DNA from: Escherichia phage IME08
Sequence record: NC_014260.1
DNA length: 64,000 nucleotides
Strand: one strand, 5' to 3'
The notes beneath the pieces are model-generated. The model saw only the letters and a program-made list of their open reading frames with translations. It had not been told where the DNA came from and made no database searches. Each line of letters begins with the position of its first letter. Positions within the stretch are counted from its first letter, which is position 1. The position numbers were made by a program, and so were the translations under genes. Shown one piece after another: positions 52,157 to 60,456 of this stretch.

Positions 52157-52164
52157 TATAAATA
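52157..52164 (+). promoter_or_regulatory. Late promoter (TATAAATA) for gene 9
   Basis: Plus-strand TATAAATA 27 nt upstream of the gene 9 ATG. Confidence 0.6.
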
Positions 52165-54862: not shown

Positions 54863-55527
54863 TGACTTTAACAGAAATGAAAAGCGGGTTAAAATCCCGC
54901 CTTGCTGACTTTTTAGAATTTTCTTTTACAACTAATCAACCTGCCGCAGTGGCAGGTCAACGTCCTATTGGCGGTCCATCGGCAAACCAAACCCAAAAAG
55001 GTGTTTATTACCCTACAGTCCAAAGTGCTATTGATGATATTGCTTTCCGTGCAGAACTTCCTGTTAATGCGGTGGTAACTACTACTGAAAACAGGGCACC
55101 TGGTTTTATTCAACAATCGGATAAATTAACTTTCTCTGGCTCCATTTCTTCTGGTGGCGAATTAGGCGATACGGTTATTATTAAGGTGTTCGGTTTGCCT
55201 GTTGAAGTTATTGTAGGCGATTCTTCGGTCCTGGTTGCTTCTAAAGTTAATGATGTTTTTATAAGCGCTATTGCCGATAGTTATATTTTGGCAGAAACGT
55301 CTATTGACCCTCTAGACCAATCTACTTTAAACATTAAATATAACGACTACCAAAACCATATTTTTGAGCCATTTAAACAAGCAGGATGCACCATTTCTCA
55401 GACTATAGTTCAAGAGCCTCGTGCAGGTTATGGATACTGGGAATATTTGGGTTCTACTACAGAATCTATGACAGGTGGAACCGTAAATGGAACAACAACC
55501 TTATATCACTATAAGCGAGTAAGTTAA
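54862..55527 (+). CDS. 11: Baseplate wedge / short tail fibre attachment protein gp11
   Basis: 221 aa (T4 219), synteny. Confidence 0.85.
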   Translation: MTLTEMKSGLKSRLADFLEFSFTTNQPAAVAGQRPIGGPSANQTQKGVYYPTVQSAIDDIAFRAELPVNAVVTTTENRAPGFIQQSDKLTFSGSISSGGELGDTVIIKVFGLPVEVIVGDSSVLVASKVNDVFISAIADSYILAETSIDPLDQSTLNIKYNDYQNHIFEPFKQAGCTISQTIVQEPRAGYGYWEYLGSTTESMTGGTVNGTTTLYHYKRVS

Positions 55528-57059
55528 TGTCTACAAATACACTAAAACACATAAGTGATAAATCAGAATTTAAAACATTCGACCCTACCGGGTCGAATTT
55601 TGACCCCTCTATTACTAATGTCCAAGACGCATTGGCGTCTATTTCCGCTATAGGTGTTACAGGTAATATACCTTCGGCTTCTGAAACAGAACAGGGTATT
55701 ATTAGATTAGCGACCCAACAAGAAGTTATTGATGGTACTGATACTTTCTCTGCGGTAACTCCGGCCACTTTAAAAGGTCGTTTAGATATTCCTACTCAAG
55801 CAACAGAAACTTATGTAGGCATCACCCGTTATGCCACTAATGATGAAGCCATTGCTGGAACAGAAACCCAGGCTGCAATCGTAGCATCGTCTTTGAAAGC
55901 TACTATAGATTATACATTCACCAATCGTTTAGCCACAGAGAACACTACAGGCGTACTCAAGATTTCAACCCTGCCGGCTGCTCTAGCAGGTACAGATGAT
56001 ACAACAGCAATGACGCCTCTGAAAACTGCTCAGGCAATTGGTGCGGCTACATCGGCATTACCGACTTATGCCAGCGCTACCCAAACTGTTGAAGGTATTG
56101 TTAGAATCGCAACAAATGCCGAAGTGGCAAATGGTACATTGACCAATGGTGTGGCAATTTCTCCTTCCGGGTTAAAATCTTTAACTTCTACCCAAGGGCG
56201 AGCAGGTATTATTAGATTAGCCACCCCGCAAGAAGCTTCTGCCGGCAGCGATTCTAATATAGCTTTATCTCCTTCAACTCTTCTTTCTCGTACTGGTACT
56301 ACTGGAAGGTTGGGTGTTGTTAAATTATCGACTACGGTTGGTTCTGGTGATGGGAATACGGCATTGGCATATAATGCTAACGTTATTTCTACCACAGGCG
56401 GCACCATTAACGGTACTTTAAACGTTAATGGTAATTTGCGTCGCAATGGGCGTGATGTTGTTACTATCGACCAATTAAAAGATTCTGTCCCTATCGGTAC
56501 TATTGTTATGTGGGGAGGCCAGATTAATAATATCCCTGCAGGTTGGGCTGTTTGTGATGGTGGTAACTCTGGTGAACAAGGATTCCGAAATGTAGTTGGT
56601 AGTAAATGGGGTTCAACTGGTGCTCGTCCCGACTTCCGTGGATTATATCCGCGTGGAGCAAACCAGACTAATGACGGCGGATTAAGAGAATGGGATGCCA
56701 ACGTTAGAATTAGAGATGCCAAAGGTAATGATGCCAAAGGTAAACCAAGATTAGGCGTAGGCTGTGGTTCATATGGCCATGGTACAGTACAAGCCCAGCA
56801 ACTTCGTTTCCATAAACACGCTGGCGGCTTTGGTGAACACGACAATGCGGGTGCATTTGGTAATACCGTTCGTTCTAACTTTGCTGGTACTCGTAAAGGA
56901 CTGGACTGGGATAACCGTTCTTACTTTACAAACGAAGGATACGAAATTGATGGTTCAGGTTCACGAGATTCAAGAACTACCCTAAACAGTGAAGGGTTAA
57001 TTGGTAACGAAAACCGTCCTTGGACTATGTCCATCCTATTCATTATTAAAGTTGCTTAA
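55527..57059 (+). CDS. 12: Short tail fibre protein gp12
   Basis: 510 aa; C-terminal KPRLGVGC...HKHAGGFGE.D.SGAFGNT.RSNF.GTRKGLDWDNRSYFTN.GYEID matches the T4 gp12 receptor-binding domain. Confidence 0.88.
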   Translation: MSTNTLKHISDKSEFKTFDPTGSNFDPSITNVQDALASISAIGVTGNIPSASETEQGIIRLATQQEVIDGTDTFSAVTPATLKGRLDIPTQATETYVGITRYATNDEAIAGTETQAAIVASSLKATIDYTFTNRLATENTTGVLKISTLPAALAGTDDTTAMTPLKTAQAIGAATSALPTYASATQTVEGIVRIATNAEVANGTLTNGVAISPSGLKSLTSTQGRAGIIRLATPQEASAGSDSNIALSPSTLLSRTGTTGRLGVVKLSTTVGSGDGNTALAYNANVISTTGGTINGTLNVNGNLRRNGRDVVTIDQLKDSVPIGTIVMWGGQINNIPAGWAVCDGGNSGEQGFRNVVGSKWGSTGARPDFRGLYPRGANQTNDGGLREWDANVRIRDAKGNDAKGKPRLGVGCGSYGHGTVQAQQLRFHKHAGGFGEHDNAGAFGNTVRSNFAGTRKGLDWDNRSYFTNEGYEIDGSGSRDSRTTLNSEGLIGNENRPWTMSILFIIKVA

Positions 57060-57069
57060 GGAAATAAAA

Positions 57070-59469
57070 ATGATTGACAAACTGAGTATTAAAGAACTTC
57101 CGTTTGTCGATGGTGTACCTGATGCATCCCAAGAGCGTATCCGTTGGATACGCAATGGAGAATGTATTGAAGGAGCCACGACTAAATACGGTCACGACGG
57201 TAATTTGAACGCCCCTGCTTTAGGAGTACAAACCAACGTAGTTAGATTAGAAGAAAACAGTATAGCTTCTAAAGACAAAATTAACGAGCTTGTGGATAAC
57301 GTTAATTTGATTAATGAAGCCCTAGATATTTCTACTGATACGGCGGTTATTCAGCAAATTGAAAAGAACCGTGTCGATATACTGGCTGTGGATGAAAAGG
57401 CTTCCGAAACTAAACAAGAATTAGGTGACTTAACCGTTAATTTTAATTTTTTAGAAGAAGATGTAGGTTATTATGGCCCGTCTTTAGATGGCCCATATCT
57501 CACCGTCAGAGAAAATATAAATCTTCTTAAATCTGAAATTGGTCACTATGCAAACCAGGACATAAACAGCCAGCCGCTTCCTCCAGGTGAAACCTCTGAA
57601 GCCACCGGCATGAAACGTCGCATTATGGATAATACCAGTGCTATTGTCGACCATTCACAACGTATAGATACCCTTGAAAAGAATTACGAAGATTCTGATG
57701 TAGGGCAACTTGGGCTTAAGATTAACGAAATTCGTGAAGAACTCGGTCCACATATTGATACAGTAGGTAAACAACCAGCATATACCAGGATTTCTGCTCT
57801 TGAAACTGCTGCTGAAAGCTTTAATGAATCAATAGATTCCATCAAGACCAGTATAGGTTTTGATAAAGGCTCTATTGATACAAGAGTAAGCACGCTGGAA
57901 ACTAAAACTTCCACTTTAGAAAACACGGTTAATAACGGTTTGGTTCCTAGAGTTACTGCGGTAGAGACCGCTATCGGTACTGCGGATACCCCTACTTCTA
58001 TTAACGGTAGATTAGGTGGCTTACGTACTGATGTTAATGAGCTAAAAAATATAGTTGGTGATAGTTCGTCTGAAGGGCTTCGTTTCCAGGTTTCTGATAT
58101 TGACCGTAAAATTGGTGCTGATGTAAGTCCGGCGGCAGGAACAATTAATAAACGTTTGAATGACCTTACAACTCAAGGTAATACTTCAGCCTCTACTATT
58201 CAGGACCTGCAGGCAGAGATTGGTAATAACCAAACAGGTATTAAGGGTTCTATTCTTAAAATTACCAACCAGATTGAAGGAACCAACCCTAACGGTAGTA
58301 CTGTAGAAGAACGAGGGTTAATAAACTCTGTTAAAGGCCTTGAAGCCCAAATGCCTACTAAATTGGGTGAAGCTCCTGCTGATGGTAAATTGTATGGGCG
58401 TAAGGATTCAGCTTGGTCTGAAATTATTGACGGCACCACAGAAATTGATGCAGTCAAAGCTTCTTTATTGGTTACAGACGGTAAAGTATCAGCTTTAACG
58501 GCAAGAGTCGATTCCAATGACACTTCAATTTCTTCTCTTGATACACGTACCGGAGCTTTAAACACTTCAGTAGGAGAAATTAAAGCCGATATCGTTTTGT
58601 TAAAATCTAAAGACACCGAGCAAGATAGTCGTATCACAGCTTTAGAAGAAAGTGATGTTACCGTTAATGGAAAAATAACGGCACTTGAATCTAAAACCGA
58701 TACCACTGATTCTGATGTTACTGCTTTGGCCTTAGATGTGAGTTCTATAGAATCGCAATTAACTCCTATTAAAGCTGATATAACTAAGAACAAAGGCGAT
58801 ATCGTTACTTTAACCGGACGAGTAGCTGCTAATGAAGGTGAAATTACCGATATTAAATTGGACACCGCTAAAATAGCTCCTTTAACCACCAGAGTCACTA
58901 CTGCTGAAGGTAAAATTGCCACCTTAGAAACCGGTTTAGCTGCTGTTAAAGTTGAATCTGATAAAGTTGCAGGAATTAATACCCGTTTAGGTACAGCTGA
59001 AGGTAAAATTACCACCTTAGAAACCGGTTTGGACGATGTTAAAGTTGAATCCGATAAAGTTGCAGGGATCGATACCCGTTTAGGTGTTGTTGAAGTTGAA
59101 TCTGGTAAAGTGGCTGGAATCAATACCCGCTTAGGCGTTGTTGAAGGTGAAGTTAGTACTCTTGAAACCGGGTTGGCAGCAGTTAAAGTTGAATCCGATA
59201 AAGTTGCAGGAATCAATACCCGTTTAGGTACGGTAGAAGGTAAAGTTGGTACTCTTGAAACAGGTTTAGCGGCGGTTAAAGTTGAATCTGATAAAGTTGC
59301 TGATTTAGGAACCCGTTTAACTGCGGCTGAAGGTAAAATCACTGCACTAGAAACTGAGTTGGCTAAACGCCCTCCTGTTGCTCCTGCAGCTGATGGACTT
59401 CCGTATGTTCTGGTTGATAATGCATGGGTTCTATTGTCAGATTTTGTGACTTTAAACTCAGCACCATAA
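57070..59469 (+). CDS. wac: Fibritin (whisker antigen control, wac), expanded repeat form
   Basis: Start MIDKLSIKELPFVDGVPDASQERIRWIRNGE resembles T4 fibritin MTDIVLNDLPFVDGPPAEGQSRISWIKNGE; foldon-like C-terminus (AWVLLSDF); 799 aa against 487 in T4. Confidence 0.85.
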   Translation: MIDKLSIKELPFVDGVPDASQERIRWIRNGECIEGATTKYGHDGNLNAPALGVQTNVVRLEENSIASKDKINELVDNVNLINEALDISTDTAVIQQIEKNRVDILAVDEKASETKQELGDLTVNFNFLEEDVGYYGPSLDGPYLTVRENINLLKSEIGHYANQDINSQPLPPGETSEATGMKRRIMDNTSAIVDHSQRIDTLEKNYEDSDVGQLGLKINEIREELGPHIDTVGKQPAYTRISALETAAESFNESIDSIKTSIGFDKGSIDTRVSTLETKTSTLENTVNNGLVPRVTAVETAIGTADTPTSINGRLGGLRTDVNELKNIVGDSSSEGLRFQVSDIDRKIGADVSPAAGTINKRLNDLTTQGNTSASTIQDLQAEIGNNQTGIKGSILKITNQIEGTNPNGSTVEERGLINSVKGLEAQMPTKLGEAPADGKLYGRKDSAWSEIIDGTTEIDAVKASLLVTDGKVSALTARVDSNDTSISSLDTRTGALNTSVGEIKADIVLLKSKDTEQDSRITALEESDVTVNGKITALESKTDTTDSDVTALALDVSSIESQLTPIKADITKNKGDIVTLTGRVAANEGEITDIKLDTAKIAPLTTRVTTAEGKIATLETGLAAVKVESDKVAGINTRLGTAEGKITTLETGLDDVKVESDKVAGIDTRLGVVEVESGKVAGINTRLGVVEGEVSTLETGLAAVKVESDKVAGINTRLGTVEGKVGTLETGLAAVKVESDKVADLGTRLTAAEGKITALETELAKRPPVAPAADGLPYVLVDNAWVLLSDFVTLNSAP
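58860..59360 (+). repeat. In-frame tandem repeat array (about 93-nt / 31-aa unit, roughly 5 copies) inside wac
   Basis: Repeated protein unit TLETGLAAVKVESDKVAGINTRLGTAEGKIT with near-identical DNA copies. Confidence 0.6.
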
Positions 59470-59470
59470 T

Positions 59471-59492
59471 AAAAGGGCTTCGGCCCTTTTTT
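59471..59492 (+). terminator. Rho-independent terminator after wac (UUCG tetraloop)
   Basis: AAAA-GGGC-UUCG-GCCC-UUUUUU immediately after the wac stop. Confidence 0.65.
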
Positions 59493-59494
59493 GC

Positions 59495-59502
59495 TATAAA
59501 TA
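59495..59502 (+). promoter_or_regulatory. Late promoter (TATAAATA) for gene 13
   Basis: Plus-strand TATAAATA 22 nt upstream of the gene 13 ATG. Confidence 0.6.
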
Positions 59503-59523
59503 CGGTTATTAGAGGAATAAAAT

Positions 59524-60456
59524 ATGGCAAGTGAATCATTTAACCCTAAGCAACTCAAGGACGCTATTCTGCGCCGCCTGGGTGCGCCAATTACAAATAT
59601 TGAAGTAACTACAGACCAAGTATACGATTGCATCCAGCGGGCCCTAGAGCTCTACGGTGAGTATCATTATAACGGGTATAACAAAGGTTATCAGGCTTTT
59701 TATATCGGTCATGGCGATGAAGAAAAATTCCGTAATGGAGTATTTGACCTTAAAGGCCGTAATATATTTGCAGTGACACAAATTTTGAGAACCAATGTAG
59801 GTTCTTTAACATCTATGGATGGGCAAGCAACTTATCCGTGGTTTACTGATTTTGTATTAGGCTTAGCAGGTATTAATGGCGGGTTAGGGTCTTCGTGTAA
59901 CAGTTTTGGACCTAATGCCTTCGGTGCTGACCTTGGTTATTTTACCCAGTTAATGCAATATCGTTCTATGATGCAGGACCTTTTGGTTCCACTACCTGAT
60001 TATTGGTATAACGACGCCACCGAACAGTTGAAGGTAATGGGTAACTTTGTTAAAGGCGATTTTATTGTAATTGAAGTTTATACTCACTCTTTTAATGGGG
60101 TCGATTCTATGGTAGGAAATACTGTAGGATATGGTTATGCTTCAGCTTGCGGTGAAGATGCATGGAGCCCGGGTGCTGTTTGGGATAACCCATCACGTCG
60201 TATTTCTGGTATGCGTGTAGGTGAGGACCTAGGTCTTCAAGATGGTGCATATAATAACCGTTGGGTTAAAGATTATGCCACTGCATTGGTTAAAGAAGTC
60301 AATGGTAATATTTTAGCCAAACACCAAGGCATGCAACTTGCAGGTGGAACCACCGTAGATGGTATTCGATTGATTGAAGAGGCTCGTTTAGAAAAAGAAC
60401 GTCTTCGTGAAGAATTAGATTTACTCGACCCACCAACACCTATTTTAATTGGATAA
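59524..60456 (+). CDS. 13: Neck protein gp13
   Basis: 310 aa (T4 309); [35 protein letters not shown] matches T4 gp13. Confidence 0.9.

Follow-up and report, generated by a model that had tools for sequence, protein, structure and literature searches.

The fibritin (neck whisker) gene of Escherichia phage IME08, wac, encodes a protein that exceeds T4 fibritin by 312 residues, and this raises the question of where in the protein the additional length lies and how it came about. A first-pass annotation of the window, i.e., the whole stretch of 64,000 nucleotides that was analysed, had put some 300 extra residues down to an in-frame tandem repeat located between a T4-like N-terminal and a foldon-like C-terminal domain. 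The coding sequence (57070..59469, with all its parts on the + strand) starts with an ATG at 57070 and specifies 799 aa and a stop codon. Its product matches PHROG 1056 ("fibritin neck whisker", E=3e-195) and T4 fibritin (PDB 2bsg, E=2e-74), with residues 6-429 collinear with residues 5-431 of T4. It is preceded by gp12, the short tail fibre (55527-57059, identified from the Pfam domains of the ORF), and followed by the counterpart of the gp13 neck protein that is annotated downstream of wac in IME341 (59524-60456). The 54 nt between the wac stop codon and the start of gene 13 hold no ORF, hence there is no dedicated downstream chaperone gene. A scan for sigma-70 promoters and terminators around wac gave nothing exceeding shuffled sequences, and an antisense ORF of 477 aa (58200-59633) was rejected as a gene, being an unsupported by-product of the codon composition of the repeat. 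We think it very probable that the product is a JS98-type fibritin, i.e., the double-foldon neck whisker (collar fibre) of a JS98-like (Dhakavirus) T4-type phage, in which a second rod and a second foldon follow the T4-like part.

The first half of the protein closely follows T4. The N-terminal neck-attachment domain (aa 1-50; 57070..57219) aligns from T4 residue 5 and matches PDB 1ox3 and 2ibl (E=2e-14); its role in attachment to the neck is described for fibritin (PMC3797505, PMC12929629). Next comes a long, segmented coiled-coil shaft (aa 51-430; 57220..58359), which by alignment is collinear with the T4 coiled coil and is predicted to be a parallel trimer; in our heptad scan its register shifts every 20-40 aa, i.e., the segments are short. 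The shaft leads into an internal beta-hairpin motif (aa 431-452, GEAPADGKLYGRKDSAWSEI; 58360..58425), which was located with Pfam Fibritin_C, spanning aa 373-452 (profile positions 4-90 of 93), and with the T4 foldon, to which aa 433-452 are identical at 10 of 16 positions (score 57, shuffles 18±4). In an AlphaFold2 (AF2) model, aa 442-445 and 448-451 form strands, with low pLDDT. The motif is thus foldon-like in sequence, and a trimeric foldon fold is predicted for it. Both this motif and the terminal foldon are carried by 12 of the 12 Dhakavirus Wac proteins examined. Judging from these alignments, residues 1-452 correspond to almost the whole T4 protein and the T4-equivalent part stops at the internal foldon, so that the extra length is the 347-aa extension after it. 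The first-pass annotation was right about the 799-aa ORF, its T4-like N-terminus and its foldon-like C-terminus, which the ORF, the T4 alignment and the foldon score bear out; it had overlooked the internal foldon.

The extension comprises about 136 aa of unique coiled coil, a degenerate 31-aa unit, a 141-aa repeat array (41% of the extension) and the terminal foldon. The non-repetitive spacer (aa 453-588; 58426..58833) is a long uninterrupted coiled coil according to the heptad scan, AF2 and Pfam DUF7310 (aa 452-506, E=2e-11), and the repeat search reported no similarity between it and the 31-aa unit. The heptad pattern spans aa 465-766, in a single register up to aa 605 and with one register shift per repeat unit beyond. 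We modelled aa 400-799 as a monomer and used the model for secondary structure only (mean pLDDT 57, and below 50 over aa 656-725, a part of the array that includes a sub-duplication); it has helices at aa 455-592 (the spacer, as one helix with pLDDT up to about 90), 603-665 and 686-765, and hairpins at aa 442-451 and, in the terminal foldon, 779-788. This foldon (aa 767-799, RPPVAPAADGLPYVLVDNAWVLLSDFVTLNSAP; 59368..59466) is where PDB 1avy and 1aa0 align; its motif (aa 769-795) is identical to the T4 foldon at 13 of 25 positions, including WVLLS-F (score 58, shuffles 17.5±3.9), and is nearly invariant in Dhakavirus and Gaprivervirus. Searched by itself, the extension matched only coiled-coil families, and a receptor-binding or enzymatic role was rejected on these grounds. 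Of the 1474 phage records that matched Wac, only 57 span 80% or more of the query, and among the matches listed, a spread sample, nearly all end at about aa 450.

The array is the sole strong tandem repeat within the window. Tandem Repeats Finder (TRF) reported a 93-nt period at 58899-59337 and a 51-nt sub-period at 59037-59151, and each 31-aa unit is made up of four heptads and a shift of 3 residues in register. Identity of the degenerate unit U0 (aa 589-619; 58834..58926) to U1-U4 is 45% in amino acids, as it is to their consensus, and 54-62% in nucleotides. The units proper are U1 (aa 620-650; 58927..59019), delimited by TRF and unit alignment, U2 (aa 651-698; 59020..59163), U3 (aa 699-729; 59164..59256) and U4 (aa 730-760; 59257..59349), after which a partial unit, ETELAK (aa 761-766; 59350..59367), runs into the terminal foldon. 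U2 holds a 51-nt/17-aa sub-duplication (59092-59142; aa 675-691) whose copies are 82% identical in nucleotides. An in-frame 31-aa repeat in coiled-coil sequence, with one internally sub-duplicated unit, had therefore been correctly recognised in the first pass. Two details were amended: the array consists of four full units plus the 17-aa half unit (4.5 units, with degenerate flanks) instead of about five, and its DNA, which had been called near-identical, shows 72-86% identity between unit pairs, with 29 nt as the longest exact shared stretch.

We compared relatives via tblastn and megablast against a phage collection; a protein homology search with the extension gave 27 matches, was saturated by coiled-coil words, missed even the IME341 protein, which is 98.6% identical, and does not amount to a copy-number census. 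Among fifteen Dhakavirus and Gaprivervirus relatives, Wac ranges from 514 to 827 aa (514, 689, 720, 734, 737, 751, 768, 772, 799, 827), and the differences are mostly whole 31-aa units and ±17 aa, with additional small rearrangements in CLB_P2 (772 aa) and Esco_phi_B-01 (827 aa). Hybrid units and units of 14 aa (31 minus 17) also occur, and the starts of the two foldon motif matches lie between about 52 and about 365 aa apart. The units group by position across genomes, not by phage: each is 95-99% identical to its closer orthologues in other phages (U1 97% in ABTNLS3; U3 95% in MX01, with a further orthologue at 88% in JS10; U4 99% in MX01 and 98% in ABTNLS3) versus 72-86% to the paralogues of its own array. 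Most relatives examined end their array with U4, apart from VR5 and Eco005, whose last units are divergent and cluster apart; the U2 sub-duplication recurs in JS10, VR5 and Eco005, and JS98 lacks it; and the Gaprivervirus phages MN01 and VR26 repeat a U0-homologous unit 3-6 times. This orthology by position indicates that the array is old and has been reshuffled by recombination, neither recently expanded in IME08 nor mis-assembled. The distal module is 97-99% identical to those of ABTNLS3 and MX01, whereas the shafts are just 68-69% identical to those of the same phages.

What this architecture may do in the virion can be proposed from T4, in which the role in collar and whiskers and in the attachment and retraction of the tail fibres is known and from which we extend it to IME08. 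T4 fibritin measures 530 Å in length and attaches by its C-terminus to the tail-fibre knee (PMC3004832); gp13 is bound by twelve fibritin trimers, of which six make up the collar and six the whiskers (PMC12929629); and fibritin has a role in tail-fibre retraction (PMC3797505). By analogy, gpWac would be a trimeric fibre forming the neck collar and whiskers, its chain running from the neck-attachment domain through the segmented shaft, the foldon-like hairpin and the second rod (an unbroken coiled coil of about 140 residues, then the segmented coiled coil built of repeats) to the second foldon. The latter most likely nucleates and registers trimerisation and, on the T4 analogy, probably contacts the long tail fibre at its knee. 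A fully helical extension could add up to about 460 Å to a whisker of T4 length, at most about 46 Å per unit and about 25 Å per 17-aa half unit. On this reading, the array evolves in two registers (93 nt and 51 nt) through slippage or unequal recombination, and phages also swap the distal module; together these processes give a genus-wide series of whisker lengths.

Whether such lengths are adaptive is a separate matter. The distal rod could act as a quantised length dial, set through the two recombination registers and module exchange, with a unit number that is linked to the environment and does not simply drift. Whiskers would then range from about the T4 length to about twice that, and their reach would set how readily the long tail fibres stay retracted. 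Tuning of retraction by the array, also suggested in the first pass, is plausible, and yet we consider an adaptive dial unlikely. In C6, AnYang and JS98-C3 (514 aa), the spacer was lost by an in-frame deletion of 285 codons, and these are deposited phage genomes with named hosts; the phage thus seems able to do without the extension, the length of which may be close to neutral and not tuned.

A stronger version would make the array a contingency locus, where frequent changes in unit number within a population dial whisker length, tail-fibre retraction and adsorption. The ±31 and ±17 aa steps between close relatives, hybrid and 14-aa units included, the viable short form without the spacer and the known part of fibritin in retraction speak for it, but near-identical tandem units, by which contingency loci are recognised, are not what we observed, and exact matches as short as those found here argue against high-frequency slippage. 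The array is moreover stable with respect to IME341 and its layout is conserved with respect to JS10, copy-number differences being seen only with relatives more distant than the former. We regard this version as improbable.

The explanation given in the first pass, that the fibritin of IME08 is of the ordinary T4 type and gained about 300 residues in its central coiled coil through a recent in-frame expansion of the 31-aa unit, fares worse. There is indeed an in-frame 93-nt array and relatives do differ in unit number, but the array supplies 141 of the 312 extra residues (178 with its degenerate flanks), the 136 aa of the spacer are non-repetitive, and the extension sits after the internal foldon, outside the T4-equivalent shaft. 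Furthermore, the units are closer to their orthologues in other phages than to each other and the layout is shared with JS10, a phage with 75% gene identity; recent expansion in this phage was rejected on the former ground, and the explanation as stated is, in our view, very improbable. Expansion and contraction by recombination, as had been proposed, hold across lineages and fail as a recent event in IME08. Finally, the worry that units were collapsed or expanded in assembly, which reflects only the general risk of tandem repeats in short-read assemblies, can be dismissed with near certainty, since the units are divergent enough for unambiguous assembly, the independently deposited IME341 genome shows a matching array (units 99-100% identical; the one nt that differs is gene nt 1863, within U1) and the units of JS10 follow the same order, at 83% nt identity.

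A double-foldon fibritin of the JS98 type is thus our preferred reading, and on it the gene is an ordinary, well-explained feature that holds nothing surprising for a T4 specialist. The practical value lies mainly in annotation: what Dhakavirus fibritins have in excess comes after the first foldon and carries a second one, and is not an enlargement of the T4 shaft. Across the genus, whisker length also varies naturally, mostly in 31- and 17-aa steps, on otherwise similar virions, a series that could serve to probe whisker length against tail-fibre retraction and adsorption. Protein engineers, who commonly use the foldon as a trimerisation tag, may take some interest in one that lies within the chain and has further coiled coil behind it.

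Comparison with known systems sets these results in proportion. T4 fibritin (487 aa; PDB 2bsg, 3j2o, 1aa0, 1avy) shares the N-terminal domain, the shaft, the foldon motif and the position between genes 12 and 13, but has a single, C-terminal foldon where IME08 Wac has an internal foldon-like hairpin and then 347 residues with a second foldon. The last coiled-coil segment of T4 (about 25 aa before the foldon) best matches the stretch before the terminal foldon of IME08, not the internal one. Even the Wac of dhaeg, with a single unit (689 aa), is 202 aa longer than that of T4. Some non-T4 phage fibre proteins have APxDGxxYxRxxxxW hairpins that bracket repeat-built coiled coil and match Pfam Fibritin_C (its foldon part) and DUF7310; these cassettes have C-terminal globular or glycine-rich domains, a different repeat unit and no Wac N-terminal domain, and the relation is at the level of motifs only.

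The remaining comparisons concern JS98-type fibritin and the fibritin of IME341. Latypov et al. reportedly studied the fibritin of JS98C3 in 2007. A pair of foldon motifs, separated by a coiled-coil spacer whose length differs between JS98-like phages, is already published as the architecture of the JS98 type (Letarov & Krisch 2013, Ecol Evol 3:3628, PMC3797505), and JS98 fibritin trimerises through its foldons alone (PMC3797505). That paper does not mention quantised 31-aa/17-aa length steps (it never uses the word "repeat"), and we found no other literature on the 31-aa repeat or on Dhakavirus whisker length; our dissection at the level of units adds modest detail. The fibritin of Enterobacteria phage vB_EcoM_IME341 (AWD92041.1, MH051917), annotated as "fibritin neck whiskers protein", also has 799 aa and is 98.4% identical in nucleotides and 98.9% in amino acids, differing by 39 nt and 9 aa, with 13 of the nt differences clustered within 56 nt across the internal foldon. 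JS98-type fibritin and IME08 Wac are alike in the foldon pair, the spacer, the genus and the gene position, without any categorical difference: the Wac of JS98 (751 aa) runs collinearly with that of IME08 and lacks only one of its 31-aa units and the sub-duplication of 17 aa, the number of units being 4.5 in IME08, 3 in JS98 and none in JS98-C3.

The extra length of the IME08 fibritin, Wac (799 aa), is only partly due to its repeats. Residues 5-431 of T4 fibritin (487 aa; PDB 2bsg, 3j2o) are collinear with residues 6-429 of Wac (E=2e-74), and this T4-like shaft is immediately followed by GEAPADGKLYGRKDSAWSEI (aa 433-452, foldon 1), which shares 10 of 16 residues with the hairpin of the T4 foldon, EAPRDGQAYVRKDGEW, and scores 57 against that foldon (500 shuffles: 18±4, maximum 36). 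The Pfam domain Fibritin_C covers aa 373-452 (profile positions 4-90 of 93, the foldon part included). From the collinear shaft and the motif that closes it, the T4-equivalent protein ends at about residue 452. A second foldon (foldon 2), PVAPAADGLPYVLVDNAWVLLSDFV, forms the C-terminus; it is identical to that of T4 at 13 of 25 positions, WVLLS-F tail included (score 58; shuffles 17.5±3.9). Set against these two motifs, the foldon of T4 looks like the foldon 1 hairpin combined with the foldon 2 tail.

The excess over T4 is 312 residues, i.e., a 347-aa C-terminal extension minus a slight shortening of the shaft. The extension comprises a non-repetitive stretch (aa 453-588, 136 aa), a degenerate repeat unit (U0, 31 aa), the repeat array (141 aa), a partial unit (6 aa), and the terminal foldon region (33 aa). 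The array makes up 41% of it, or 51% with the degenerate flanks, and the 689-aa Wac of phage dhaeg, which has a single unit, still exceeds T4 fibritin by 202 aa. The first-pass annotation, which attributed an excess of about 300 residues to the repeat, was thus right about the foldon-like C-terminus and the in-frame array but not about the source of most of the length. Only 57 of the 1474 phage records matched by tblastn covered at least 80% of Wac, and matches ended at about residue 450 in nearly all records of the listed spread sample.

The repeat itself is real and far beyond chance. Tandem Repeats Finder, the check proposed for wac, returned a 93-nt period over 58899-59337 (matches 79-89%) and a 51-nt period nested at 59037-59151; no other tandem repeat scoring at least 80 was found in the 64-kb window. 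A separate repeat search gave six copies in wac, with successive spacings of 93, 93, 51, 93, and 93 nt. In the protein, U1 (aa 620-650), U3 (aa 699-729), and U4 (aa 730-760) are full 31-aa units, and U2 (aa 651-698) is a 31-aa unit with a 17-aa internal duplication (aa 675-691), the sub-duplication announced by the first-pass annotation. U0 (aa 589-619, window 58834-58926; 45% identity to the consensus) lies upstream and the partial unit downstream of U4. That annotation also had the gene length right, but its description of the repeated DNA as near-identical did not hold: pairwise identities between units are 72-86% in nucleotides and 61-90% in protein, and the longest exact stretch common to two units is 29 nt. 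The differences are mostly synonymous, which gives the units the look of old duplicates under purifying selection.

The wac ORF (57070-59469, + strand) is counted from the ATG at 57070 rather than from the upstream TTG of a mechanical ORF list. It lies between a gene whose product has gp12 short-tail-fibre Pfam domains (gap 10 nt) and a gene 13 homologue (gap 54 nt). The T4 late-promoter consensus TATAAATA occurs in the latter spacer (59495-59502, +); no copy lies directly upstream of wac (the closest upstream on the + strand is at 52157), and the count across the whole window is not above chance. An antisense ORF of 477 aa (58200-59633, - strand), itself repetitive in translation, covers the repeat region and is almost certainly a by-product of sense-strand codon composition.

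In vB_EcoM_IME341, an Enterobacteria phage of the genus Dhakavirus, the protein annotated as 'fibritin neck whiskers protein' shares 98.9% amino acid identity with Wac, and the genes 98.4% nucleotide identity. One of the 39 nucleotide differences falls within U1-U4 (gene nt 1863, in U1). Thirteen others are packed into 56 nt over the internal foldon (58383-58438), where identity drops to 83% vs 98-100% elsewhere; this cluster suggests a small recombination patch. Phage JS10, 75% identical over the gene, has the same layout of U1, U2 with its 17-aa duplication, U3, and U4. An assembly artefact is ruled out, since the array layout is shared by IME341, one nucleotide different, and JS10.

Both foldon motifs were present in all 12 Dhakavirus Wac proteins of the first batch extracted. 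In this batch, together with UP19 and Esco_phi_B-01, lengths were 514, 689, 720, 734, 737, 751, 768, 772, 799, and 827 aa, and most differences amount to whole 31-aa units (689/720/751; 737/768/799) plus the 17-aa piece. The latter occurs duplicated (31+17) or deleted (14-aa units, 31−17, in CLB_P2, UP19, and Esco_phi_B-01), with further small rearrangements in CLB_P2 (772 aa) and Esco_phi_B-01 (827 aa). The Esco_phi_B-01 protein, the longest seen, comes from an unannotated record (locus L016, wac end near position 2794) and has a hybrid of a 31-aa unit joined to U0 (TLQSDLAAVKVDTAKIAPLTTRVT) plus a 14-aa unit. The 93-nt units cluster by position and not by genome. Examples are the first unit of ABTNLS3, which matches U1 at 97% identity, that of MX01, which matches U3 at 95%, and the last units of these two phages, which match U4 at 98-99%. 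The array must therefore be old. Phages carry different subsets of it: U1+U4 in ABTNLS3, U3+U4 in MX01, and U1'+U2 (without the duplication)+U4 in JS98. In the Gaprivervirus phages MN01 (789 aa, L012:401-2770) and VR26 (722 aa, L018:323-2491), the two-foldon architecture is kept, but the unit expanded there (3-6 times) is another one, ~22-23 aa long (EGEITAIKLDTAKIAPLTTRVTS) and homologous to U0.

The wac gene is, in addition, a mosaic. The arrays of ABTNLS3 (L009) and MX01 (L011) are 97-99% identical to that of the window but their shafts only 68-69%, which points to exchange of the distal module (58426-59469) between lineages; the shaft of C6 is 95% identical. In the 514-aa form (C6, AnYang, JS98-C3), window codons 468-752 (58471-59325) are deleted exactly and in frame, with only 1-3 nt of homology at the junction (C6, L007:401-1945); the existence of this form means that the whole spacer appears dispensable for viability.

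In a simple heptad scan, the T4-like shaft changes register frequently, as is classic for segmented coiled coils; aa 465 to 605 keep a single unbroken register, and each repeat unit adds exactly one shift because 31=4×7+3 and 17=2×7+3. Modelled as a monomer with AlphaFold2, aa 400-799 gave a low mean pLDDT (57), and the model was used for secondary structure alone. It predicts beta-hairpins at aa 442-451 and 779-788, a single helix over aa 455-592 (pLDDT up to ~90), and helices at aa 603-665 and 686-765. Searched by itself against Pfam and PHROGs, the extension matched coiled-coil families only (e.g., a P22 tail-needle-like family and DUF7310), and no enzymatic or receptor-binding family. At ~1.5 Å per residue, its ~314 helical residues could lengthen a T4-length fibritin (530 Å; PMC3004832) by up to ~460 Å.

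In T4, twelve fibritin trimers sit on the gp13 dodecamer, six forming the collar and six the whiskers (PMC12929629), and the C-terminal end touches the long tail fibre near the knee, a contact that promotes attachment and keeps fibres retracted in unfavourable conditions (PMC3797505, PMC3004832). Wac is expected, by homology, to act likewise. The terminal foldon, nearly invariant across Dhakavirus and Gaprivervirus, would be the folding nucleus and probable contact tip, and the repeat-built rod a spacer. Near-neutral length drift with modular recombination is compatible with the data. A device that switches fast or is tightly tuned is disfavoured by the modest identity of the units, by the stability of the array between IME08 and IME341, and by the fact that phages with the spacer-less form are viable. 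That the units form a quantised, adaptive dial of whisker length seems improbable.

Foldon-like motifs recur in other arrangements. At its C-terminal end, the 607-aa Wac of Escherichia phage EcS1 (Kagamiyamavirus; L014:1501-3324) has five foldon-like hairpin motifs in tandem (e.g., EAPNDGKEYVRKSKAW, DAASDSKLYGRQDGAW, EAPKDGKAYVRKDGAW), not separated by any coiled coil, and two Fibritin_C stretches are reported for it. Non-T4 fibre-like proteins from metagenomes and phages (P0009-P0014) have a foldon-like motif, a coiled coil built of the repeat ALE.ADT.QD.KI..., a second such motif, and then a globular or glycine-rich C-terminal domain; they match the foldon part of Fibritin_C and DUF7310. The Wac of phage pEC-M719-6WT.2 (L013:950-2626) and protein P0005 are annotated as beginning with MEYVFKLYYQNSLLRTK, in an overlap with gene 12 and ahead of the conserved MINKLSLKELPY; the start codon is probably mis-called.

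The architecture of Wac is already known, and the protein, of a known kind, is in essence present in the databases. The architecture agrees with the published description of JS98-type fibritin, which has two T4-like foldon motifs (Letarov & Krisch 2013, PMC3797505) and, in JS98, needs no chaperone to form trimers but relies on its foldons, as T4 fibritin does. The word 'repeat' does not occur in that paper, to which the quantised 31/17-aa basis of spacer variation and the orthology of the units may be a small addition.
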